A stretch of DNA of 64,000 nt from Escherichia coli (lineage in GTDB: Bacteria; Pseudomonadota; Gammaproteobacteria; Enterobacterales; Enterobacteriaceae), in assembly GCF_009931435.1 (NCBI RefSeq), contig NZ_CP043414.1; one strand, given 5' to 3'. Position numbers and translations under genes: made by a program. Below the pieces are notes generated by a model. It made no database searches and was not told the origin of the DNA. It saw nothing but the letters and a program-made list of their open reading frames with translations. Positions 10,034 to 58,701 of this stretch are shown piece by piece (position 1 is the first letter of the stretch; the number at the start of each line of letters is the position of its first letter).

Positions 10034-10078
10034 AGGGCAAAGCGGAAACAGATAAGACTGGCATAAATGAAGAAGAAA

Positions 10079-10123
10079 TGGCGCGCCCTGCAGGATTCGA
10101 ACCTGCGGCCCACGACTTAGAAG
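10079..10123 (-). repeat. 45-bp copy of the 3' end of tRNA-Arg (prophage attachment-site repeat, distal end)
   Basis: Sequence tggcgcgccctgcaggattcgaacctgcggcccacgacttagaag identical to 58383..58427; diverges afterwards. Confidence 0.8.
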
Positions 10124-10546
10124 TTCCTAGAACGACATTTTAAGTCAACAACTTACCGCGCCATCTCTGCGCTCACACGTCCCACTACCTCAAAACATGT
10201 AAAGCCTTGCAAGCCATTGCGAGGCCTTATGTGTCTCAGTTTTGTCCCTCTTTTTTGTACTAAAAAACATAGTAATTGAGGATAAACCTCATGCTATTTT
10301 CGCTTATATGCCTCTAAAGGCATGGCACTTAAATAGATAAAAGCACCACAAAAGCATAAAAAAACCACACAGTAAAACCGAAATATGAAACAATAACAGA
10401 TAATTAAACCAAAAACAGATAGCGCATTGTGATAATCATTCAATACTAAACAAAATATAAACAGTGGAGCAATATGTAATTGACTCATTAAGTTAGATAT
10501 AAAAAATACATATTCAATCATTAAAACGATTGAATGGAGAACTTTT

Positions 10547-12499: not shown

Positions 12500-13119
12500 C
12501 TTGCACCTATCATAAAATTAAAACAAGTTGATAGTAGTCAAATAACAACCAATTAAATACACAATCATAATCAGGATGATGTGCATTTATATTTTTATAC
12601 ACAAAATTATAGTTTGCAAATTTTAATAAATTTCATTTAAGATTAAATTATTATATGTATGTTGTTTTTTATTCTAACTTATTTCAAAGTTACATTTTTC
12701 AACGCTTACTATGCTTTTTATTAACATAAACTCACTACAACGCACCTGAAACCTCTTGCTATATATATGTCAACCGTTTGAATTTAAAATAAAAAGAGTA
12801 TCATTTTTACTTGCATTTCTTATCAAGTCACATTCAACAACAGTAAAAAAACATTATTAGAACCATTCAATTAACAAAAAACCAACATCCAGCTTGCTTA
12901 ATTTTTCTTTATTAAACGATATTGAAAATCAATTGATAAAATACATCTAAACAACCTTTTGGGGCGCAAAAGCATAACATCAAACAAACAAATAACACAC
13001 CGAAAAAACTCACAATTAATAACCTATGATATACATACTGTTTATTATGGTTGAATAAGCCACTCGATATCTGGTGCTACGGAAGTGTCCACACGGTTTA
13101 GCAGCACCCGATACTTTTT

Positions 13120-13305
13120 TCAGGCTTCCAGCAACGATCTTTCTTCCTCCGTTGCGATTTCCAGATCTACAGCATCCTGCAGTGGCGCAATATACTCACT
13201 GAATTCCTGGATGTAGAACTGTGTAGTGACGGTCTTCCAGCCATTCGGCTCCTGCTGTATTGAAGCATACCAGGCTATTTCAATATCGCTATGCTGCGGC
13301 AGCAT
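13120..13305 (-). pseudogene. tfaX: Tail fibre assembly protein remnant (C-terminal fragment, tfaX-like)
   Basis: 61-aa ORF shares the motif [23 protein letters not shown] with Tfa at 14095..14679; about 130-bp DNA direct repeat. Confidence 0.6.
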
Positions 13306-14094: not shown

Positions 14095-14679
14095 TTACTC
14101 CCTGACAGGGTTCGTAGGCCACTCAATATCAGGTGCAGTTGATGTATCAACACGGTTCAGCAACACCCGATATTTTTTCCAGGCTTCCAGCAATGAGGTT
14201 TCTTCCTCCGTTGCGATTTCCAGATCTACAGCATCCTGAAGTGGCGCAATATGCTCACTGGCTACCTGCATCAGGCTGTTTTTTGTTTCTTCCGCCTCCC
14301 GAATCCGGAACAGTTTTTCTGCTTCTGCATCTTTCACCCAGGCTGTACCGTTCCACTTCTGAAACTCCCCTTCCGGCGATAACCAGGTAACATTTTCCGG
14401 TAACGGACCGAGTTCAGAAATAAATAACGCGTCCCCTGACGCTACGTCATAAACCGTTTTACCCCGATGATCTTCAACGAGATGCCACGATGACTCATCA
14501 CTGTTGAAAACAGCCACGAAGCCAGCTGGAATATCTGGCGGTGCAATGTCGGTACTGTTTGCTGGCAGACCTGTATGAGGCGGAATATATGCGTCACCTT
14601 CACCAATAAATTCATTAGTTCCGGCCAGCAGATTATAAATTGTTATGGTCCGTGGTTGTTCACTCATTCTGAATGCCAT
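14095..14679 (-). CDS. tfa: Tail fibre assembly protein Tfa
   Basis: ORF track 194 aa; start overlaps the stf stop by 1 nt; lambda Tfa-like. Confidence 0.85.
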
Positions 14680-18813: not shown

Positions 18814-21800
18814 TCAACGAATACTGATGCCGGAAGCGGCTTTTTTGGTCACAATCACCGTACAGTCGGTGATATTACCTGCCCACTGATTGCCTTTATG
18901 GAAAACCTTAAACTCCAGAGTGACGCTTCCCCTGCCACTCGGCATATCAATAACCGCACTGTAGCTACCGGGAATGGCCCCTTTAGTTTCTCTGGATGCG
19001 ATTAATACACCGTTTTTGCGAACTTCAAAACCATAACCCGTGTATCTTGTACCTCCCGGGTTATTACCACTTCCCGGATCGCTATACGCTATTCCGTTAA
19101 AGATAATGGGCGGAATAATGATTTGACGGTCAAAGTTATGATCATCGCTGATGGTGACTGTAACCGTCCCGTTTGGTGTTTCCGTGTTACCCCACGTACC
19201 AGCCTGTTTCGGAAATGATTTGGATACAGCTTTAACGAAGTCACCTCTGACCTGAGTCGCCTCCAGCATGCCCTTAATTGTACAGTTTTCATTTACCGTG
19301 ACATTGTTGAGCGTCCCGGCGTTCGCATTCACACTGCCACTGATATCCGCATTTTTAGCGGTCAGCTTTCCGTCTGATGTCAGGGAAAATACCGGTGGAT
19401 TTCCACCGCTGGTAATGGTGGGGGCCGTCAGGCGCTTCAGGAACACGTCGTTCATGAATATCTGGTTGCCCTGCGCCACAAACATCGGCGTTTCATTCCC
19501 GTTTGCCGGGTCAATAAACGCGATACGATTGGCGGCAACCAGAAACTGGCTCAGCTTGCCTTCCTCCGTGTCCTCCATGCTGAGGCCAATACCCGCGACA
19601 TAATGTTTGCCGTCTTTGGTCTGCTCAATTTTGACGCCCCACATCGCATTCCATTTATCGTTAGCGTCCTTCCACTCTTTCGAAAACTCATCCAGTCTGC
19701 TGGCGTTATCCTCCGTCAGATCAACTTTTTCCAGCAGCTCTTTACCGAGATGGGATTCGGTTATCTTGCCTTTGAAAAAATCCAGGTAACCTTCCGCATC
19801 ATCGCTCGCCCGACCAACAGCCTCCACGAATGCCGATTTGCCAACGGTGTTCACACTGCGAACGTAAAAATAATAATCATGGCCCGGTTTGATATTGATA
19901 CTGGCGGCTATCCAGTACAGTGCCGTACCAAGATAACGCGCGCTGGTTTCAACCTGCCTGATATCCGCAATCCGTTTTTCCGAGAACCAGAACTCAAACT
20001 GTACCGTCGGGTCATAAACCGCAAGATGCGGCGTGGCGGTTATCTGAAAATAGCCCGGCGTCAGCTCAATCCGCGACGGCGCTGCCGGTGCGGCAATCCG
20101 GAACGATACCGACGCCGGATCGCCCTGCTGTCCCCACGCATTTACCGCCCGGACTGTCAGCGTGTACCGTCCCAGCGCCAGTTGCGTGAAGCGGTATGTG
20201 GTTTCCGTCGTCCGGGCCGTGCTGACCAGCCGCTCACTGCCGTCATCCGCTGTTACGGTCAGACGGAGCAGGAAGCTCACGCCCTTCACCACCTTCGGCG
20301 TGTCCCAGCGCGCCAGCACCTGATATTCCCCGCTGTCTGCGGTGACTTCGGCAGTCAGGTGCTGCACCGCTGGCGGCGTGACACCATTCACCGTGCCGCT
20401 CTGGTCGCCGTCAAAGTGCGCCCCGTTATCCACGATGGCTTCTTTTTCCGGTACATGCTGCACGGCGGTGATGGCATACGTGCCGTCGTCGTTCTCACGG
20501 ATACTCACGCAGCGGAACAGGCGCTGGCGCAGCGTCGGCAGCTTCAGCCCCCACACGCTGTATTCAGCAACGCCGTCAGGAACACGGCTCACTTTCACCT
20601 TCACGCCGTCGGTGACGGACTGAACCTCCACGCTGACCGGATTGCCACTTCCGTCAACCAGGCTTATCAGCGTGGTACCGGAGGATGGCAGCGTGATTTC
20701 ACGGTCGAGCGTCAGCGTCCGGGTCTGGCTGTTTACCGCCAGCACGCGCCCGCCGGTGCTGATACCGGCATAGTCATCATCACAGATTTCAATGACATCG
20801 CCCGGCACATGGCGAAGCCCTTCTGCGCCCACGCTGAAGTCCACGGTCTGCGTTTCCAGCAGTTCTGTTTTAATCAGCCATAGCCCGGCGCGATGTGCCT
20901 GCCCCCGGCTGGTACAGCCAAAGGCATCCATCTTCGTGACGTTACGACCGTAACGGGCAATGGCCTGCGTGTCCTCCACAAGCTCTGTCGCCGTCTCCCA
21001 GCCGTTATTCGGGTCAATCCAGTTCACCTCAACGGCATTATGGCGGTCCTTCAGGGCGCTGAAGCTGTAGCGGAACGGCGCGCCATCATCCGGCATCACC
21101 ACATTACTGCGGTTATAGGTCCACACCTTATCCGATGGTCGGTCCTGCACGAACGTCAGCGTCTGCCCGTTCCATACCGGCATACAGCGCATCGCCGAGC
21201 AGAAATCACTGAGCACATCCCACGCCTTGCGCTGTGTGGTCAGGTACGCATTACAGGTGATGCGCGGCTCCGTGCCGCCAAAGCCGTCCGGCACTGACTG
21301 GTCGCAGTACTGGCCGATGACATACAGCGCCCATTTATCCACATCCGCCGCACCAAGACGTTTCCCCATGCCGTAGCGCGGATGGGTCAGCATATCCCAC
21401 AGACACCAGGCCATGTTGTTGCTGTATGCCGGTTTAAACGTTCCGTCCCAGATACCGCTGTATTGCCGCGTCTGCGGGTTATAGTTCGACGGCACCTGCA
21501 GAATGCGCCCGCGCAGATGATAATTACGGCTCACCTGCTGGCTGCCGAACTGCTCCGAATCCACCTGCACGCCGACCAGTGCCGTGTTCGGGTAGCCCTG
21601 TTTCACATCGATGATTTCGGTGTATGACGACCAGAGCGTTTTGTTCTGCAGCTGGTCTGTGGTGCTGTCCGGCGTCATCCTGCGCATCCGGATATTGAAC
21701 GGGCGCGGCGGCAGGTTACCCACCACCACCGAGGCCAGATACTGCGAGGTGGTTTTGCCCTTAATGGTGATGTCTTTTTCCGTCACCCAGCCACCATTAC

Positions 21801-30586: not shown

Positions 30587-31612
30587 TTACGCCAGTTGTA
30601 CGGACACGAACGCATCAGGATCAGCCAGCAGCATCAGCGGTGCTGACTGAATCATGGTGAACTCACGCGCCGGATCGCCGGTGGTCACCCAGTTTTTCGG
30701 GTAGCGGGCAGAGGCGTTAATACCTTCGCGCTGTGCGTCCGCATCCTGAATGCAGCCATAGGTGCGCAGACCGCGTGCCTGAGTGTTCCCCAGCACCATC
30801 GTGTTGTCCGGCAGGAAGTTCTTTTTGACGTCGTTTTCCACGTACTGTCCGGAATACACGACGATCGCCGTATCGCCATACATCCCCTTATAGGACACCG
30901 CTTCGCCCAGATCTTTTACCGCTGTCTCCAGCTCGGAATGAGAGCCGCGACGGGTATCCAGCTTCTCCTTGACGGCTTTGAAGGAACGGAACAGCGCCCA
31001 GCCTTTCGGATCAAACACGATGATATTCACCACACCGCTGGCGTTCAGCGCGTAGGCTTCGATATCGTCGGTCGGGTCATACGTGGACTTGTCACGCTTG
31101 CTCCACTCCGTACCGCCGGACTGCGTGATGTTGTTCGCCACACTGCGGCCCATATCCACTTCAACCGGATCGAAGGCTTCACCGGTCATGGTATATTTGC
31201 CCTTAAGCACGGCAGAAACGGCCTGCATCTCTTCGACCTGAGCAATGGCCAGCTCTTCGTCTCGCATGTTCTGCAGAATGATGCGACGGCGGCGGTAAGC
31301 CGGGTCCGCCAGATTCTGTGGATCTTCATCCGGCAGGCGACGCAGGGTCATCTGCGGATTCACCTCATGCTTCGGCTTGACATATCCCGGTGTAAATTCA
31401 GAGGTGGAGCCGCCACGGGAGCGGATAACCTCACCGGAAACAATCGGCGAAACGTACAGCGCCATGTTTACCAGTCCCGGAATTTGTGAGAGATAGACTT
31501 TCTCCGTGGTGAAGGGATAGCTCTCACGGAAAAAGAGACGCAGAAACAGCGGATCAAACTTAAATTTCTTCTCATTTGCCGCCAGCAGCTGGGCGGTTGT
31601 GTACATCGACAT
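30587..31612 (-). CDS. E: Major capsid protein E
   Basis: ORF track 30587..31639; start at MSMYTT gives 341 aa; lambda gpE-like. Confidence 0.9.
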   Translation of the reverse strand: MSMYTTAQLLAANEKKFKFDPLFLRLFFRESYPFTTEKVYLSQIPGLVNMALYVSPIVSGEVIRSRGGSTSEFTPGYVKPKHEVNPQMTLRRLPDEDPQNLADPAYRRRRIILQNMRDEELAIAQVEEMQAVSAVLKGKYTMTGEAFDPVEVDMGRSVANNITQSGGTEWSKRDKSTYDPTDDIEAYALNASGVVNIIVFDPKGWALFRSFKAVKEKLDTRRGSHSELETAVKDLGEAVSYKGMYGDTAIVVYSGQYVENDVKKNFLPDNTMVLGNTQARGLRTYGCIQDADAQREGINASARYPKNWVTTGDPAREFTMIQSAPLMLLADPDAFVSVQLA

Positions 31613-49246: not shown

Positions 49247-49944
49247 ACACTTGCTCCTTTCAGTCCGAACTTAGCTTTAATTTCTGCGATCTTCGCCAGA
49301 GCCTGTGCACGATTTAGAGGTCTACCGCCCATAACAGGAAGTTGTTTTACTGGTTCAGGTATCGTCTCACCACGGTTAATTCGCGCTGTCATACAGGTCA
49401 GTTCATCGGCAGCCTTGCGCCGTAATTCCGCGTCAGCCAGCGCATTGGCCCGCATGTTCTGGTACAAGTTGGTAACCAACCAGTAATGCGCGTTCGATTT
49501 CCACGGATAAGACTCTGCATCCGGATACAGGCCACGCTTCCGGCAATACTCGTAAACCATATCAACCAGCTCGCTGACGTTTGGCAGCCCGGCGTTAACA
49601 GATGCTTCTTCCCGGCACCAGGCGACAAACTGCCCGGGTGATGGCAGGAATGGTCGATTCTGCCGACGGGCTACGCGCATTCCAGCGTTAACCTGTTCCA
49701 TTGTGGTGATCCCGTTTTCCCGGAAAGCCAGAACCCACTGGCGGCGGATTTCGTTCAGTTCATTCTGGTCACGGTTAGCCAGGCTAGCCGGGAAAGTTGC
49801 CAGTAACTGGCTGAACACACCGTTGATGATCTGCGCTACCTGCTGTACCTGCGGCTTTTCGTCGTACTGTTCCGGCATATTGTTGGCGATCCGGCGCATC
49901 TGCTCACGGTCAAAGTTAACCATCTGTGCGGCGATGTTTTTCAT
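49243..49944 (-). CDS. P: Replication protein P (DnaB helicase loader)
   Basis: ORF track 233 aa, lambda gpP length. Confidence 0.9.
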   Translation of the reverse strand: MKNIAAQMVNFDREQMRRIANNMPEQYDEKPQVQQVAQIINGVFSQLLATFPASLANRDQNELNEIRRQWVLAFRENGITTMEQVNAGMRVARRQNRPFLPSPGQFVAWCREEASVNAGLPNVSELVDMVYEYCRKRGLYPDAESYPWKSNAHYWLVTNLYQNMRANALADAELRRKAADELTCMTARINRGETIPEPVKQLPVMGGRPLNRAQALAKIAEIKAKFGLKGASV

Positions 49945-50960
49945 AAATCCACCCCGTAAATCCAGTCAGTGTTCGTCAGGTCGAGTTTTGGTTTGCCGGC
50001 TGTCACGCCAGCCTGTTGCTTGTTTCGGTTGATTTCGAGCTGGGTCCACTTGTCGCGGAGTTTGGCCGGACTCAGCACGTTACCGGACCAGAAGTTGTCC
50101 TGGCATGCCCAGCGGAACAGCACGCACATGTCGCGGTGGTTACGTCCGTCACGTTCACGCATCAGGCGGATATCGTTAGCCCACCCTGCAAAATTCGGTT
50201 TTCTGGCTGATGGCGCGATGGTCTTCACCATGTCAAACATCCACTCTGCGGCGGTCAGGTCTTCTGCTGTCCCCCACTTGCTGCCACTCTGAATTGCAGC
50301 ATCCGGTTTCACCACAGGAAGGTCGTTTTCTGGCTGGTCAGAGGATTCGCCAGAATTCTCGGACGAAAAAGGTTTTATATTGTCTTTTGTTAGTTTGTCT
50401 TTTGTGTTTACCTGATTCGGGTAAACGCCTTTACCTGATTTGGGTAAACTTTTCTTACCTGATTCAGGTAAATTTACCTCTTTCAGGTAAACTTTATTTT
50501 TCTTACCTGATTCGGGTAATGTTGACCATTCACTGACCACATTATTAATGCCGATATTTCGCCCGCTCTGAATAAGAATCCCACGCTTTACCAGAACGCT
50601 TTTTGCAGCAGAACACTTGTGCGGCAATATCCCGGTCAATTCGGAAAGTTGCTCGTTGCTCACCCAATCCAGTCTTTTATTAAAGCCATATGTTTTGCGC
50701 ATGACAGCCAGGAAGACCAGAAGCTGGTGCTGTGTTAATCCGGCCAGCATCACAGCTTCCAGCAACTCATTTGCAATGCGCGTATAACCATCATCGAGAT
50801 CTGCCACGCGCGGCTCCTTTTGTGCCGCATCCGGCACTGGAAAATTGAATATCTCAGCAGTGTTTGCCATAATTCCTCCCGCAATGAGTGTGTTACGATT
50901 TGCACCTGAAAGTCGGTTCTGTTCCCGCAGACCGACTTTCGCCATTTCTGAACCTATCAT
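49941..50960 (-). CDS. O: Replication initiator O (lambda-like C-terminal half; non-lambda N-terminal half and iterons)
   Basis: ORF track 339 aa; contains ori iterons and AT-rich segment; start overlaps upstream stop (ATGA). Confidence 0.85.
   Translation of the reverse strand: MIGSEMAKVGLREQNRLSGANRNTLIAGGIMANTAEIFNFPVPDAAQKEPRVADLDDGYTRIANELLEAVMLAGLTQHQLLVFLAVMRKTYGFNKRLDWVSNEQLSELTGILPHKCSAAKSVLVKRGILIQSGRNIGINNVVSEWSTLPESGKKNKVYLKEVNLPESGKKSLPKSGKGVYPNQVNTKDKLTKDNIKPFSSENSGESSDQPENDLPVVKPDAAIQSGSKWGTAEDLTAAEWMFDMVKTIAPSARKPNFAGWANDIRLMRERDGRNHRDMCVLFRWACQDNFWSGNVLSPAKLRDKWTQLEINRNKQQAGVTAGKPKLDLTNTDWIYGVDL
50405..50525. repeat. Phage replication origin: about five iterons of the form TACCTGATTCGGGTAAAC inside the O gene
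   Basis: Direct repeats each with internal dyad TACC..GGTA, read on the + strand; adjacent AT-rich stretch. Confidence 0.7.
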
Positions 50961-51796: not shown

Positions 51797-51900
51797 AACA
51801 ACCTCCGTGGTTAATCCGAATCAAGATTAAAACTATGGTTGTTTTTAGTCAACAACCATTTTCGTTTGATGAAATAAAACCTTGGTTGTACATTTGATCT
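51797..51900. promoter_or_regulatory. Right operator/divergent promoter region with ATGGTTGTT-N7-AACAACCAT palindrome and extra TGGTTGT half-sites
   Basis: Inverted repeat read at about 51835..51859 between the divergent repressor and cro-like genes. Confidence 0.55.
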
Positions 51901-52590
51901 ATGAAAACAACACTCTCAGAAAGACTTAAAGAAGCCAGATTAGCGCGAGGCCTTACACAAAAGGCGCTTGGGGATTTGGTCGGGGTTAGCCAGGCTGCTA
52001 TTCAGAAAATCGAAACAGGGAAAGCTAACCAAACAACTAAAATCGTGGAGATCGCGAACGCTTTGGGTGTACGCGCAGAATGGTTATCTTCTGGCGTTGG
52101 AAATATGTCAGACAGTACAGTGCAACCAATACAATCAACTGTCAGCCATTCCAAATACTTCAAAATTGACGTTCTTGATATAGAAGTCAGTGCCGGGCCA
52201 GGTGTAATCAACCGTGAGTTTGTAGAAGTTCTACGCTCGGTTGAGTACTCGTTTGACGATGCTCGTCACATGTTCGATGGCAGGAAGGCGGAAAATATCC
52301 GCATCATTAACGTGCGAGGTGACAGCATGTCAGGGACGATCGAACCAGGTGACCTGCTGTTCGTTGATATCACTGTTAAATCTTTCGACGGTGATGGCAT
52401 CTATGCGTTTCTGTACGACGACACTGCCCATGTAAAACGTCTTCAAATGATGAAGGATAAGCTGCTGGTTATCTCTGATAACAAGAGCTACTCGCCGTGG
52501 GACCCGATCGAGAAAGACGAGATGAACCGGGTGTTCATATTCGGTAAGGTCATTGGAAGCATGCCGCAGACGTACAGGAAGCATGGTTAA
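51901..52590 (+). CDS. Prophage repressor, LexA/S24-peptidase type (CI analogue)
   Basis: ORF track 229 aa; N-terminal HTH plus C-terminal autoproteolysis domain. Confidence 0.85.
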   Translation: MKTTLSERLKEARLARGLTQKALGDLVGVSQAAIQKIETGKANQTTKIVEIANALGVRAEWLSSGVGNMSDSTVQPIQSTVSHSKYFKIDVLDIEVSAGPGVINREFVEVLRSVEYSFDDARHMFDGRKAENIRIINVRGDSMSGTIEPGDLLFVDITVKSFDGDGIYAFLYDDTAHVKRLQMMKDKLLVISDNKSYSPWDPIEKDEMNRVFIFGKVIGSMPQTYRKHG

Positions 52591-52819
52591 TTTATCTACG
52601 ACTTAAGGGAGCGAAGGTTAAGGTTTATACCACTCGGATTAGATATTGCACTAAATTCTCTATAAGAACGCCAAATCTGTTTGCATATTTCAGTAAATAT
52701 TCTCGTTGTTAGCTGAGATTTGTTGCTACTGTCAGCAAAATGTCTCCCTATCTCGTAGCGGTTTTTATTTCGAATCATTATGTTAAGATGTTTCTGATTA
52801 TAATGAATGGAAACATAAA

Positions 52820-53200
52820 ATGAGAAAAATCCTAATCGCTGCCATGATGGCATCTGTATTGGCTGGGTGTGCTTCTTCAGGCAACCAGCAACTCAAAAAT
52901 GAAACTGAAATTAGTGTCCAGTCTAAACTTCAGGAAGGTAAAACAACCAAGAATGAGGTTAAATCTTACTTTGGTTCTCCTGATGCTGTTTCATATACTG
53001 ACAGTGGAAAGGAGATCTGGAAGTACGCCTTTGCAAAAGTAAAAGTTAATGGCACCACTTTTATTCCATTCTATGGATTATTCCATAACGGAACGAACGG
53101 TACGAAAAAAGAACTTACTATTCTTTTTAACGATGACACGATTAAGAAATACACAATGTCAGAAACCCAAATAAACTCGAAATCAGGTTGGGCTGACTGA
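52820..53200 (+). CDS. Putative lipoprotein, unknown function (cargo gene downstream of repressor)
   Basis: ORF track 126 aa; signal peptide with lipobox LAGC; own terminator downstream. Confidence 0.7.
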   Translation: MRKILIAAMMASVLAGCASSGNQQLKNETEISVQSKLQEGKTTKNEVKSYFGSPDAVSYTDSGKEIWKYAFAKVKVNGTTFIPFYGLFHNGTNGTKKELTILFNDDTIKKYTMSETQINSKSGWAD

Positions 53201-53217
53201 TAATCATACCCGGCAAC

Positions 53218-53246
53218 CGCGCCGGGTTTTCTTTTCCTCCCCCTCA
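53218..53246 (+). terminator. Intrinsic terminator after the lipoprotein gene
   Basis: Hairpin cccggc-aaccgc-gccggg followed by ttttctttt. Confidence 0.65.
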
Positions 53247-53476
53247 TAACTCATACCGTCCAAAAAACCACCACACCTCACTTCAGTTATCGCTATGCGA
53301 TGCAAGTCACAAAATAAATCCATCCTAAATACAACCAGTTATATTTAAAACAACCGATAAAACAACTTTTGTTGTTGACGATAAAACAACTATAGTTTTA
53401 AATAAATTCATCGCAACGACACAACGATACGGTAACCACCTGTTTCACCGTTGCGATGACCGCTTAGATCCGCAGT

Positions 53477-53887
53477 TTGAATTTCAGCAGGCTTCGGGGA
53501 GTGCGAGGGGTGAAACGGACGCGTGAACGTCGGTGTGACCAGCTGAAATCAACACAACACTTTATACCTCAGTCGCTTCAACGAGGCGGCTTAGTTATGA
53601 CAACCGGCGGCCATCCACCGCCTGAATACGCGCAGAAGTCTCTATATGTTCAGCAGCCCAGCTTACGGGCAGGAGTTTTTATGGTTCATCAACATTACGG
53701 AACGCAGACCGTTAATCGAGGTGCGGTCATGCCAGGAATGCTGGTCAAACACAAAGATGGTACCTGGACTGCATCAGCTAATTTACGCGGACGGCTTTAT
53801 CTGCATCGCGGCATCGAGCGCACTTATACCCGTGATTTGCTCGTGGAAGTTTTTCTCGACGGACGCGGTAACGGCCTGAATCGCTAA
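53477..53887 (+). CDS. Hypothetical protein at the early-left position (possible start at 53597)
   Basis: ORF track 136 aa from a non-ATG start; first ATG (MTTGG...) has a weak RBS; in frame with and 75 bp upstream of gam. Confidence 0.4.
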
Positions 53888-53962
53888 TCCCCTTTCCTGT
53901 TTTCCTAATCAGCCTGGCATTTCGCGGGCGATATTTTCACAGCCATTTTCAGGAGTTCAGCC

Positions 53963-54259
53963 ATGAACGCTTATTACATTCAGGATCGTCTTGAGGCTCA
54001 GAGCTGGGCGCGTTACTACCAGCAGATCGCCCGTGAAGAGAAAGAGGCAGAACTGGCAGACGACATGGAAAAAGGCCTGCCCCAGCACCTGTTTGAATCG
54101 CTATGCATCGATCATTTGCAACGCCACGGGGCCAGCAAAAAAGCCATTACCCGTGCGTTTGATGACGATGTTGAGTTTCAGGAGCGCATGGCAGAACACA
54201 TCCGGTACATGGTTGAAACCATTGCTCACCACCAGGTTGATATTGATTCAGAGGTATAA
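53963..54259 (+). CDS. gam: RecBCD inhibitor Gam (short form)
   Basis: ORF track 98 aa; recognised lambda Gam C-terminus ...[10 protein letters not shown]. Confidence 0.9.
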
Positions 54260-54264
54260 AACGG

Positions 54265-55050
54265 ATGAGTACAGCACTCGCAACGCTGGCAGGGAAGCTG
54301 GCTGAACGTGTCGGCATGGATTCTGTCGACCCACAGGAACTGATCACCACTCTTCGCCAGACGGCATTTAAAGGTGATGCCAGCGATGCGCAGTTCATCG
54401 CATTGCTGATCGTCGCCAACCAGTACGGCCTTAATCCGTGGACGAAAGAAATTTACGCCTTCCCTGATAAGCAGAACGGCATCGTTCCGGTGGTGGGCGT
54501 TGATGGCTGGTCCCGCATCATCAATGAAAACCAGCAGTTTGATGGCATGGACTTTGAGCAGGACAACGAATCCTGTACATGCCGGATTTACCGCAAGGAC
54601 CGTAATCATCCGATCTGCGTTACCGAATGGATGGATGAATGCCGCCGCGAACCATTCAAAACCCGCGAAGGCAGAGAAATCACGGGGCCGTGGCAGTCGC
54701 ATCCCAAACGGATGTTACGGCATAAAGCCATGATTCAGTGTGCCCGTCTGGCCTTCGGATTTGCTGGTATCTATGACAAGGATGAAGCCGAGCGCATTGT
54801 CGAAAATACTGCATACACTGCAGAACGTCAGCCAGAACGCGACATCACTCCGGTTAACGATGAAACCATGCAGGAGATTAACACTCTGCTGATCGCCCTG
54901 GATAAAACATGGGATGACGACTTATTGCCGCTCTGTTCCCAGATATTTCGCCGCGACATTCGCGCATCGTCAGAACTGACACAGGCCGAAGCAGTGAAAG
55001 CTCTTGGATTCCTGAAACAGAAAGCCACTGAGCAGAAGGTGGCAGCATGA
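54265..55050 (+). CDS. bet: Single-strand annealing recombinase Bet
   Basis: ORF track 261 aa; lambda Bet-like. Confidence 0.95.
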
Positions 55051-55727
55051 TACCGGACATTATCCTGCAGCGTACCGGGATCGACGTGAGAGCTGTCGAA
55101 CAGGGGGATGATGCATGGCACAAATTACGGCTCGGCGTCATCACCGCTTCAGAAGTTCACAACGTGATAGCAAAGCCCCGCTCAGGAAAGAAGTGGCCTG
55201 ACATGAAAATGTCCTACTTCCACACCCTGCTGGCTGAGGTTTGCACCGGTGTGGCTCCGGAAGTTAATGCTAAGGCGCTGGCCTGGGGAAAACAGTACGA
55301 GAACGACGCCAGAACCCTGTTTGAATTCACTTCCGGCGTGAATATTACTGAATCCCCGATCATCTATCGCGACGAAAGTATGCGCACCGCCTGCTCTCCC
55401 GATGGTTTATGCAGTGACGGCAACGGCCTTGAACTGAAATGCCCGTTTACCTCCCGGGATTTCATGAAATTCCGGCTCGGTGGTTTCGAGGCAATAAAAT
55501 CGGCTTACATGGCCCAGGTGCAGTACAGCATGTGGGTGACGCGAAAAGATGCCTGGTACTTTGCCAACTATGACCCGCGCATGAAGCGTGAAGGCCTGCA
55601 TTATGTCGTGATTGAGCGGAATGAAAAGTACATGGCGAGTTTTGACGAGATGGTGCCGGAGTTCATCGAAAAAATGGACGAGGCACTGGCTGAAATTGGT
55701 TTTGTATTTGGGGAGCAATGGCGATGA
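55047..55727 (+). CDS. exo: 5'-3' exonuclease Exo
   Basis: ORF track 226 aa; lambda Exo-like. Confidence 0.95.
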
Positions 55728-55906
55728 CGCATCCTCACGATAATATCCGGGTAGGCGCGATCACTTTCGTCTACTCCGTTACAAAGCGAGGCTGGGTATT
55801 TCCCGGCCTTTCTGTTATCAGAAATCCACTGAAAGCACAGCGGCTGGCTGAGAAGATAAATAATAAACGGGAGGCGGTATGCACAAAGCATCTCCTGTTG
55901 AGTTAA
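55718..55906 (+). CDS. Small hypothetical protein (lambda orf60a-like)
   Basis: ORF track 62 aa; overlaps exo stop. Confidence 0.5.
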
Positions 55907-56070
55907 GAACGAGTATTGAGATGGCACATAGCCTTGCTCAAATTGGAGTCAGGTTTGTGCCAATACCAGTAGAAACAGACGAAGAATTTCATACGTTAGC
56001 CACATCCCTTTCACAAAAGCTGGAAATGATGGTGGCGAAAGCAGAAGCAGATGAGAGAGACCAGGTATGA
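55879..56070 (+). CDS. Small hypothetical protein (lambda orf63-like)
   Basis: ORF track 63 aa. Confidence 0.5.
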   Translation: MHKASPVELRTSIEMAHSLAQIGVRFVPIPVETDEEFHTLATSLSQKLEMMVAKAEADERDQV

Positions 56071-56146
56071 CAACCACTGAATGCATTTTTCTGGCAGCGG
56101 GCTTCATATTCTGTGTGCTTATGCTTGCCGACATGGGGCTTGTTCA

Positions 56147-56362
56147 ATGACACCTCAGCAAGAAAACGCCCTTCGCAGCATTGCCCGTCAGGCTAATTCT
56201 GAAATCAAAAAAGCCAGACAGCATTTTCCGGATAAAAACGTCGATGACATTTGCCGTAGCGTACTAAAGAAGCACCGCGAAACGGTAACGCTGATGGGAT
56301 TCACACCGACTCATTTAAGCCTGGCGATCGGCATGTTGAACGGCGTCTTTAAGGAACGGTGA
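56147..56362 (+). CDS. Small hypothetical protein (lambda orf61-like)
   Basis: ORF track 56081..56362; internal Met (MTPQQEN...) chosen. Confidence 0.5.
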   Translation: MTPQQENALRSIARQANSEIKKARQHFPDKNVDDICRSVLKKHRETVTLMGFTPTHLSLAIGMLNGVFKER

Positions 56363-56460
56363 ACATGAAAAGCAAAATCATCAGGGAGCTACAGGCTCCT
56401 TTTTTATTATTCGCATTTACCCTCAAGCGTATTAACCAACAATTCAGGGATTAATGAAAG

Positions 56461-56679
56461 ATGGCAGACATCATTGATTCAGCATCAGAAATCGAAGAAT
56501 TACAGCGCAATACAGCAATAAAAATGCGTCGTCTGAACTACCAGACTGTATCCGCAACTCATTGTTGTGAGTGTGGCGATCCGATAGATGAGCGAAGACG
56601 CCTGGCTGTTCAGGGTTGTCGGACTTGTGCGAGTTGCCAGGAGGAGATCGAACTTAAGAACAAACAATGGGGACTGTGA
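56461..56679 (+). CDS. DksA/TraR-family C4 zinc-finger protein (lambda Orf73-like)
   Basis: ORF track 72 aa; CxxC...CxxC motif. Confidence 0.7.
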   Translation: MADIIDSASEIEELQRNTAIKMRRLNYQTVSATHCCECGDPIDERRRLAVQGCRTCASCQEEIELKNKQWGL

Positions 56680-56726
56680 TGGCCTCAAAGCAGCAAATTT
56701 CAACATCGTCCAACTGAGGTGTAAAA

Positions 56727-57005
56727 ATGTTCAGAATCATTTTTCCTAACACCTGGTACGTCGACCACCACGGCACTCCCTGCAAAATCCTGCGTTCTAC
56801 CCACAACAAAGTTCACTACATCCGAAAAGGCAGAACATGTATCGCCAGCATGTTCCGCTTTAATCATGACTTTGAACCTGTGAATAAAGCTGATGCAGAT
56901 CGGATAGCAGAAGAGATCGAAACGGCAGAACACATTAAGAAGTTACGTGACATGCGTTCAAAAAGCAGAGGTAACCATGGAATCATACAGCCTCACACTC
57001 GATGA
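56727..57005 (+). CDS. Hypothetical protein
   Basis: ORF track 92 aa; between the traR-like gene and xis. Confidence 0.4.
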   Translation: MFRIIFPNTWYVDHHGTPCKILRSTHNKVHYIRKGRTCIASMFRFNHDFEPVNKADADRIAEEIETAEHIKKLRDMRSKSRGNHGIIQPHTR

Positions 57006-57348
57006 GGCCTGTCAGTTTCTTAAGATATCCAGACCAACCGCCACCAACTGGATACGAACAGGCCGCCTACAGGCAACACGTAAAGATCCAACCAAGCCAA
57101 AATCTCCTTACCTCACAACACGGCAAGCCTGCATTGCGGCGCTTCAGTCTCCGCTGCATACTGTCCAGGTGAGCGCGGGTGATGGCATAACAGAGGAAAG
57201 AAAATGTCACTCTTCCGCAGAAATGAAATATGGTATGCCTCGTATTCGCTCCCGGGCGGGAAACGAATTAAGGAATCTCTTGGCACAAAGGACAAGCGGC
57301 AAGCTCAGGAGTTGCACGACAAGCGAAAAGCAGAACTCTGGCGAGTAG
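56977..57348 (+). CDS. xis: Putative excisionase (HTH, AlpA/Xis-like N-terminus); 3' end uncertain, overlaps int
   Basis: ORF track 56947..57348; internal Met MESYSL..; N-terminal HTH; position upstream of int. Confidence 0.5.
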
Positions 57349-58367
57349 AAAAGCTAGGGGATTTACCTGATGTCACTTTTGAAGAGGCCTGCCTAAGATG
57401 GCTTGAGGAAAAAGCTGATAAAAAATCTCTCGATTCAGATAAAAGCCGGATTGAGTTCTGGCTTGAACATTTTGAGGGTATAAGGCTTAAAGATATCTCG
57501 GAGGCAAAGATTTACTCTGCTGTAAGCAGAATGCATAACAGAAAGACGAAAGAAATATGGAAACAGAAAGTTCAGGCCGCCATCAGGAAAGGTAAAGAAC
57601 TGCCTGTTTATGAACCAAAGCCAGTATCAACTCAGACAAAGGCAAAGCATCTTGCCATGATAAAGGCCATTCTCCGTGCTGCAGAACGCGACTGGAAGTG
57701 GCTGGAAAAAGCGCCTGTCATCAAGATACCAGCGGTCAGAAACAAGCGAGTCAGATGGCTGGAAAAGGAGGAAGCAAAACGCCTTATTGATGAGTGCCCC
57801 GAACCACTGAAATCTGTCGTCAAGTTTGCGCTGGCAACTGGTCTGAGAAAGTCGAACATCATAAATCTGGAATGGCAACAAATCGACATGCAGCGACGAG
57901 TTGCCTGGGTGAATCCAGAAGAGAGCAAATCAAACCGCGCCATTGGTGTGGCGCTGAACGATACCGCCTGTAAAGTGTTGCGTGATCAAATAGGCAAGCA
58001 TCACAAATGGGTGTTTGTACATACCAAGGCGGCTAAGCGAGCAGATGGAACATCAACGCCTGCGGTCAGGAAGATGCGCATCGACAGCAAGACATCATGG
58101 CTATCAGCTTGTCGTCGTGCAGGAATTGAAGATTTCCGTTTCCATGACCTCAGACACACCTGGGCAAGCTGGCTGATTCAGTCAGGCGTCCCATTATCAG
58201 TGCTTCAGGAAATGGGCGGATGGGAGTCCATAGAAATGGTTCGTAGGTATGCTCACCTTGCGCCTAATCATTTGACAGAGCATGCGAGGAAAATAGACGA
58301 CATTTTTGGTGATAATGTCCCAAATATGTCCCACTCTGAAATTATGGAGGATATAAAGAAGGCGTAA
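57204..58367 (+). CDS. intD: Tyrosine integrase (DLP12 IntD-like)
   Basis: ORF track 387 aa; C-terminal catalytic domain; adjacent to tRNA-Arg. Confidence 0.9.
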
Positions 58368-58382
58368 CTGATTGAATTGTAA

Positions 58383-58459
58383 TGGCGCGCCCTGCAGGAT
58401 TCGAACCTGCGGCCCACGACTTAGAAGGTCGTTGCTCTATCCAACTGAGCTAAGGGCGC
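58383..58459 (-). tRNA. argU: tRNA-Arg (anticodon UCU, argU)
   Basis: 77-nt sequence with CCA end matching argU by recall; its 3' 45 nt is the prophage attachment repeat. Confidence 0.88.
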
Positions 58460-58701
58460 GTTGATACCGCAATGCGGTGTAATCGCGTGAATTATACGGT
58501 CAACCCTTGCTGAGTCAATGGCTTTTGATCTGGTTGCTGAACAAGTGAACGACCGCGTCTGATTTTCTGATTTATTTCGCTATAGCGGCAAACAAACGTA
58601 CACCGCTGCGCGTCTGAATCAAGAAAACCCGTATTTTCATGTATCAAAGTACAATTTCCCGCCCTAACGGAAAATTGTCCGATCCTATGAGACTGATAAC
58701 T

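Follow-up and report, generated by a model that had tools for sequence, protein, structure and literature searches.

A lambda Orf73 ortholog of the TraR/DksA family encoded in the early-left operon of a DLP12-type lambdoid prophage of Escherichia coli

The closest described relative of the protein presented here is Orf73 of phage lambda, which was purified along with four further phage TraR homologs (Gopalkrishnan et al. 2022, mBio, PMC9239242). Lambda Orf73 and DksA compete for one site in the secondary channel of RNA polymerase (RNAP); Orf73 also complements a dksA-null strain and inhibits the rrnB P1 promoter without ppGpp, with an IC50 of about 50 nM. The rpsT P2 promoter is also inhibited without ppGpp, the inhibition of both promoters was seen in vitro and in vivo, and much of the activity is gone in the D3N or D6N mutants (PMC9239242). 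Transcription of the lambda gene starts from pL, a promoter under repressor control; expression of Orf73 from pL in a defective lysogen brought precursor rRNA down to 29% (a more than 3-fold cut) and rpsT mRNA to 45%, and the orf73+/orf73- ratios measured without induction, at the lower temperature, stayed close to unity, at 0.95 for rRNA and 0.93 for rpsT (PMC9239242). The protein slows the growth of the host, and after induction with mitomycin C the phage yield, or burst size, was 3- to 4-fold higher in its presence (PMC9239242). Activation by lambda Orf73 of the three host promoters tested was weak or absent, and the authors suggest that two extra cysteines may be the cause (PMC9239242). 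The functional elements named in that work are the DxxDxA motif, the equivalents of R48/R49 and a C-terminal helix contacting the Si1 insertion of the beta subunit; a modelling paper gives the same hallmarks, with ExxRL in lambda Orf73 instead of ExxRK (PMC8614690). According to one earlier study, as cited in these two papers (PMC9239242, PMC8614690), lambda orf73 affected the lysis-lysogeny balance and the yield in the opposite way.

We analyzed a stretch of 64,000 nucleotides of E. coli DNA (contig NZ_CP043414.1 of assembly GCF_009931435.1), hereafter the window, in which a short open reading frame on the plus strand (Table 1) encodes the 72-residue protein MADIIDSASEIEELQRNTAIKMRRLNYQTVSATHCCECGDPIDERRRLAVQGCRTCASCQEEIELKNKQWGL. 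This length falls within the range of about 70-75 residues typical of TraR-like short regulators. The protein has six cysteines, at positions 35, 36, 38, 53, 56 and 59; a regular-expression search recovers the arrangement C35-x2-C38-x17-C56-x2-C59, which is the CxxC-17-CxxC spacing of the TraR C4 element and predicts a zinc finger. C36 and C53 are additional to the predicted zinc-binding four and correspond to the extra cysteines reported at TraR positions 38 and 55. Residues 3-8 form a DxxDxA motif (D3-I-I-D6-S-A8), an ERRRL motif occupies residues 44-48, E64 lies within the C-terminal helix, and the first 16 residues include five acidic positions as against a single basic one. Searches of the window by tblastn with this protein and with TraR of the F plasmid recovered the gene alone (56461-56676), with no second copy; a weak match at 19990-20139 (E 0.002) looks like chance. 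Phage 933W carries two copies of a TraR-like gene.

The product is a C4 zinc-finger member of the TraR/DksA family, and the match is beyond chance. The Pfam model PF01258 (zf-dskA_traR) matched residues 33-64 on profile positions 4-35 of 36 with 37.3 bits (gathering score 24.9; E 2.8e-09), and PHROG 54, the 'DksA-like zinc-finger protein', covered residues 1-70 (E 3.6e-26). Sequence matches among PDB chains were YbiI (2kgo) and TraR (5w1s, 6n57), the latter over residues 1-69. The NCBIfam model TIGR02419 (C4_traR_proteo), which describes the TraR subfamily of phages and conjugal plasmids, aligned end to end (protein 3-64 on profile 1-64 of 64, E 2e-14), with a score of 53.9 bits that lies narrowly under its cut-off of 59.7. 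Two further NCBIfam models scored well under their cut-offs, namely the F-type TraR equivalog NF010268 (25.8 bits, cut-off 108) and NF008243, of YbiI length (42.8 bits, cut-off 96). Since the scores for the F-TraR and PRK11019 equivalog models lie far under their cut-offs, the protein is a member of the family and the equivalog of neither. The limits of the reading frame and the CCECG...CRTCASC motif quoted in a preliminary description of this gene are both present in the DNA, and its call of a TraR/DksA-type C4 zinc finger preceded by an acidic N-terminal helix agrees with the Pfam and PHROG matches, the motifs and the excess of acidic residues at the N-terminus.

Forty homologs, among them F TraR, were aligned, and the result also formed the basis of an AlphaFold2 model. 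In this alignment D3, D6, A8, C35 and E64 are invariant; C38, C56, R46 and R47 are conserved in at least 90% of the sequences; R46/R47 align with R48/R49 of TraR, and E64 with its E66. The model (mean pLDDT 81.3) has helices at residues 8-27, 44-49 and 57-70, with a zinc knuckle between the first and the last of these, and its N-terminal part is one helix where DksA has a coiled coil. When compared with the PDB by Foldseek, it retrieved TraR in complex with RNAP at the first two ranks (6n57_M, E 6.3e-04, probability 1.00, TM 0.55; then 5w1s_M), followed by YbiI in third place, DksA and DksA2. The TM score is moderate, as would be anticipated when a free model is set against an extended chain bound to RNAP; a likewise modest structural match to TraR was obtained with a model of lambda Orf73 (PMC8614690). 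We rejected an identification as DksA proper, which has about 150 residues and a coiled coil and whose chains gave only partial alignments in Foldseek (target-normalised TM 0.29-0.32). Orthology with YbiI was also rejected on the grounds of length, architecture and the NCBIfam scores.

The reference record of lambda contains a 73-residue reading frame in the unannotated gap between ea22 and orf61, which is the Orf73 of the literature, also named Orf2310. In its sequence motifs, predicted fold and synteny the gene from the window is a counterpart of this frame, and the two are orthologs: their products are identical at 62 of 71 residues (87%), and the gene order exo, orf60a, orf63, orf61, orf73-like is the same in both. 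From exo as far as codon 61 of orf73, the alignment of the DNA to lambda shows scattered mismatches only, the leader and ribosome-binding region included. At codon 62 the nucleotide identity drops abruptly from 93% to 63%, which we read as a mosaic recombination junction inside the coding sequence that exchanged the allele of the C-terminal helix; the C-terminal tail differs from that of lambda because of this junction. Relative to lambda orf73 there are 10 synonymous and 9 non-synonymous codon differences, giving a pN of 0.066, a pS of 0.283 and a ratio of about 0.23 for the whole gene, and a pN of 0.028 and a pS of 0.222 for codons 1-61 alone; these values point to purifying selection, as expected if the gene is translated. 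The nine substitutions fall in the linker from the helix to the finger (27, 29, 30), at position 49 and in the tail (62, 63, 66, 67, 70), and the first four of these are conservative. D3, D6, A8, the four zinc cysteines, E44, R46, R47, L48 and E64 are unchanged, and every residue named as functional for the phage homologs is kept (PMC9239242).

The gene lies in the exo-xis stretch of a lambdoid early-left operon (Table 1). The neighboring Orf61 has 93 residues and matches PHROG 303 over its full length; in lambda, orf61 is frameshifted and cut short by a run of 7 A in place of the 6 A found here at 56207-56212, and it has already been noted that lambda Orf61 is shorter than in Stx phages (PMC8614690). 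At the other end of the stretch, the 133-residue xis frame covers positions 2-117 of the 117 in the excisionase PHROG 2907 and also matches Pfam HTH_17. In the matching genomes, the RefSeq annotation of this locus is limited to an HTH pseudogene of 66 nt labelled 'incomplete'; an intact excisionase may nonetheless be encoded.

Table 1. Positions of the TraR-like gene, its operon neighbors, candidate signals and the prophage ends within the window
Feature	Position	Strand	Remarks
Left att repeat	10077-10126		copy of tRNA-Arg 3' part
cI-type repressor	51901-52590	+	Pfam HTH_3 and Peptidase_S24; annotated cI in phage PhiR26_1
Candidate oL/pL region	53340-53405	+	putative, read by eye
kil	53681-53887	+	early-left operon, upstream
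gam	53963-54259	+	early-left operon, upstream
bet	54265-55050	+	early-left operon, upstream
exo	55047-55727	+	early-left operon, upstream
orf60a (DUF1317)	55724-55906	+	early-left operon, upstream
Second terminator-like hairpin	55788-55819	+	inside orf60a; pattern scan; equals lambda 31265-31287 (alignment)
orf63 (DUF1382)	55879-56070	+	early-left operon, upstream
orf61, full length	56081-56362	+	early-left operon, upstream
Intrinsic-terminator-like hairpin	56383-56409	+	between orf61 and TraR-like gene; pattern scan, RNA fold
Shine-Dalgarno-like AGGGA	56446-56450	+	10 nt 5' of ATG; same in lambda; putative function
TraR-like CDS, lambda orf73 ortholog	56461-56679 (stop included)	+	ATG start, 72 codons
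DUF4222	56727-57005	+	downstream; replaces lambda ea22 and ea8.5
Excisionase	56947-57348	+	downstream; overlaps int
Integrase intD	57204-58367	+	downstream
Right att repeat	58381-58430		overlaps tRNA-Arg(TCT)
tRNA-Arg(TCT), argU	58383-58459	-	then fimZ

This operon belongs to a prophage of 48.3 kb (48304 bp between the starts of the att copies), bounded by a 50-nt direct repeat with 49 of its 50 bases identical. It contains modules for tail, head, lysis, Q, nin, replication, immunity and recombination. Among its genes, intD, emrE, ybcK, ybcL-ybcO, rusA, quuD, essD/rrrD/rzpD and nohD are shared with the DLP12 prophage of K-12, and besides these DLP12-type genes the early-left, immunity, replication, head and tail modules are complete (10077-58430). 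The halves of the prophage share about 97% identity, across 82-98% of their length, with isolated phages such as Kati, PhiR34_1 and PhiR26_1; this near-identity, together with the full modules and att repeats, argues against a dead remnant. Three 22-nt direct repeats at 50403-50519, spaced by 47-48 nt inside the O-like replication gene (49941-50960, minus strand), look like origin iterons. At the tail-fibre end, Rfam recorded IS009 at 14138-14336 on the minus strand (227.8 bits, gathering score 117), and a 157-nt direct repeat of 85% identity (13056-13212 and 14115-14271) overlaps this match.

Relatives of the protein are widespread in phages and in E. coli: phages SfI, ev243, 2G7b, PhiR30_1 and Turner encode an identical 72-residue protein, 514 phage records contain a relative, and a 501-bp stretch around the gene (56300-56800) recurs at an identity of at least 90% in 3367 of 5426 complete E. 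coli genomes. In RefSeq, the protein WP_000763385.1, a 'TraR/DksA family transcriptional regulator', is encoded on DNA that is 100% identical over these 501 bp, and a large protein collection held 226 relatives, of which those with a source name are called TraR/DksA family. As the gene is an ortholog of the characterized lambda Orf73 and already bears a correct public name, it is a known gene.

The signals ahead of the operon suggest control by the phage repressor. Within the candidate oL/pL region, an AACAAC-TTTT-GTTGTT palindrome (53361-53376) adjoins a potential promoter formed by TTGACG (53375-53380), a 17-nt spacer and TTAAAT (53398-53403), and a related AACAAC/GTTGTT palindrome is seen by eye at oR (51835-51859). 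The TTGACG-17-TTAAAT site is absent from the list returned by a consensus promoter scan, and the scan recorded no sigma-70-like site on the plus strand in 53500-58600 that could serve the TraR-like gene as its own promoter. The cI-type repressor presumably silences the early-left operon in the lysogen.

Two terminator-like hairpins, at 55788-55810 and 56383-56401 within the spans of Table 1, precede the gene. The nearer one has the form AGGGAGCU-ACA-GGCUCCUU followed by a U-run and, by coordinate transfer, agrees base for base with lambda 30673-30691. The lambda counterpart of the farther one lies at what we take to be the mapped place of the terminator tL3; a full-text literature search for a paper giving tL3 coordinates found none. 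With two hairpins conserved between lambda and this prophage ahead of the gene, read-through should need antitermination, as in lambda. In the interval from the cI region to kil (52590-53700), the search revealed no N-like reading frame, nor was one recognised elsewhere in the prophage; in a 136-residue frame at 53477-53887, PHROGs recognise the Kil domain only, which is preceded by an arginine-rich N-terminal extension. Comparison by blastn with the early-left region of HK022, which holds the put RNA site, gave chance matches only, with no nut-like or put-like element found, and Rfam at gathering thresholds returned IS009 and tRNA only, with no match in the early-left leader. The predicted fold of the leader at 53405-53530 is no more stable than those of its shuffled versions (z -0.64); a long hairpin is seen at 53408-53459 in the leader as taken to 53680.

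The place that rexAB takes in lambda, past the repressor gene and ahead of the early-left promoter region, is occupied by the gene for a predicted lipoprotein of 126 residues (52820-53200), with a signal ending in LAGC, membership in PHROG 3135 and a weak Pfam BamE-domain match below the cut-off. A strong terminator-like hairpin (53208-53227) follows this gene on its 3' side. The lipoprotein may be a moron expressed in the lysogen.

Taken with the published work on lambda, we consider it very probable that this DLP12-type lambdoid prophage encodes, in its ortholog of lambda orf73, a TraR-like protein with a lambda-like mode of action. We propose that, once the repressor is inactivated, an early-left (pL-type) transcript would extend through kil, gam, bet, exo, orf60a, orf63, orf61 and the TraR-like gene. 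The N-terminal helix of the product would then enter the secondary channel of RNAP, bringing D3, D6 and A8 close to the active site; the globular domain, which binds zinc and contains R46 and R47, would rest on the beta' rim helices and Si3, and the C-terminal helix with E64 would touch the Si1 insertion of the beta lobe. Open complexes at rRNA and ribosomal-protein promoters would be destabilized, ppGpp not being required, and host resources would be diverted from ribosome synthesis, with slower growth of the host and a higher yield of the phage. It is from the experiments on lambda Orf73 and F TraR that we infer the binding to RNAP, the promoter effects, the timing of expression and the benefit in burst size. 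Expression after induction is favored because the gene follows kil-exo in the same orientation, in a prophage with a cI-type repressor and operator-like palindromes, and has no promoter of its own in the scan.

The preliminary description had further attributed the protein to a phage, which is borne out by its place in the early-left operon of an att-flanked lambdoid prophage, and had envisaged that it binds the RNAP secondary channel and reprograms host transcription, for which the 87% identical lambda Orf73 lends support by analogy (PMC9239242). Of the two occasions suggested for this action, during the lysogen or after induction, the latter is upheld by the position of the gene on the strand of the cI repressor, downstream of kil-gam-bet-exo and two hairpins, and by the lack of a sigma-70-like promoter of its own on the plus strand; the former finds no counterpart in lambda, where the transcript ratios in the uninduced lysogen stayed near unity (PMC9239242). 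Experiments of the kind suggested there have already been published for lambda Orf73 (PMC9239242).

A lysogenic-conversion role, in which constitutive low-level expression reprograms transcription in the uninduced lysogen, would exploit the fact that the gene shares its strand with cI and the lipoprotein gene, such that read-through of the maintenance transcript is formally possible. Against this stand the strong hairpin after the lipoprotein gene, the lack of a sigma-70-like plus-strand promoter near the TraR-like gene, and the equal amounts of rRNA and rpsT transcripts in uninduced orf73+ and orf73- lysogens of lambda (PMC9239242); moreover, since Orf73 slows growth, expression in the lysogen would be selected against, and we regard this role as exceedingly improbable. 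That the gene might instead be a silent passenger of a cryptic prophage, never expressed and with no present function in the host, is suggested by the neighboring xis being marked as a pseudogene in RefSeq and by the two terminator-like hairpins ahead of the gene in a prophage in which no N gene was found. The K-12 prophage DLP12, which occupies the same argU site, is defective. Set against these points are an intact reading frame under apparent purifying selection, a 48.3-kb element that has its two att repeats and in which the head, tail, lysis, replication and immunity modules are complete, the closeness of its halves to isolated phages, and an xis frame that spans the whole excisionase profile, which together render a silent passenger very improbable.

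Equally improbable is a main function outside transcription, either as a direct block of the initiation of host DNA replication (the 'bin' effect of lambda) or through a partner other than RNAP, with the TraR-like motifs being incidental. Earlier work, as cited in PMC9239242, did assign a part in the block of host replication initiation to orf73, along with ea22, ea8.5 and orf55. However, lambda Orf73 reduced dnaA mRNA only weakly, whereas it inhibited rRNA promoters strongly and directly, and the authors consider that the replication effect may be indirect, for instance through supercoiling or less new DnaA (PMC9239242). The invariance of RNAP-contacting residues across homologs also speaks against such a function, as does the absence from this prophage of the lambda partners ea22 and ea8.5, in whose place DUF4222 is found.

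One departure from lambda is the exchanged C-terminal helix. As this helix makes the beta-Si1 contact in TraR, the potency or promoter range of the protein could differ from that of lambda Orf73, and the activation seen with F TraR and missing in lambda Orf73 might be restored by the EEIELKNKQWGL tail. The joint proposition that the EEIELKNKQWGL helix alters the contact with Si1 of the beta lobe, and hence the promoter spectrum or potency, and that antitermination is in addition achieved without a recognisable N, seems to us unlikely. Beyond a correct annotation, the weight of the finding is small, in that what it contributes is a further copy of a lambdoid early gene that is already very common. 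Its practical value lies in confirming that such prophages carry what would be a ppGpp-independent inhibitor of ribosome synthesis acting after induction, and the allelic C-terminal helices of the family are possible natural variants for studies of the beta-Si1 contact.

Among the known systems, the chromosomal YbiI of E. coli (2KGO, with the depositor titles YbiI or YBIL) is the best PDB match in sequence (E 1.2e-05), but the likeness is limited to residues 31-67, the zinc-finger half, and its N-terminus differs. DksA of E. coli (1TJL, 5VSW, 7KHI) likewise has the Pfam zinc-finger domain and a DxxDxA acidic tip in the secondary channel; however, it carries this motif on the tip of a coiled coil and requires ppGpp for full activity, whereas the 72-residue protein has the single N-terminal helix and, by homology, would not need ppGpp. 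F TraR (5W1S, 6N57/6N58) is of the same size and is built from the same three parts: an N-terminal helix bearing DxxDxA, a C4 zinc domain that contains the RR pair, and a helix at the C-terminus. In structure no other PDB protein matched the predicted model better, yet F TraR is only 32% identical, and its gene sits in an operon for conjugation, not in an early operon of a phage. P2 Orf82, VHML Orf8, VP882 Orf61 and Gp34 of X. bovienii belong to the same family, with activity on RNAP demonstrated (PMC9239242), and are more distant in sequence than lambda Orf73; inhibition is weaker with P2 Orf82 and Gp34, whose DxxDxA is imperfect, in contrast to the perfect motif of the protein from the window. 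Lambda Orf73 itself differs in having 73 residues as against 72, the tail EDLELISKQRGSK in place of EEIELKNKQWGL, ea22 in place of DUF4222 as the downstream neighbor, and a phage that integrates at attB-lambda, as opposed to one at the argU site with no recognisable N gene. It nevertheless remains the nearest of these systems, sharing the DxxDxA motif, all six cysteines including the two extra ones, ERRRL, E64 and the place after orf61, along with a leader, Shine-Dalgarno-like element and terminator-like hairpin that are nearly identical.
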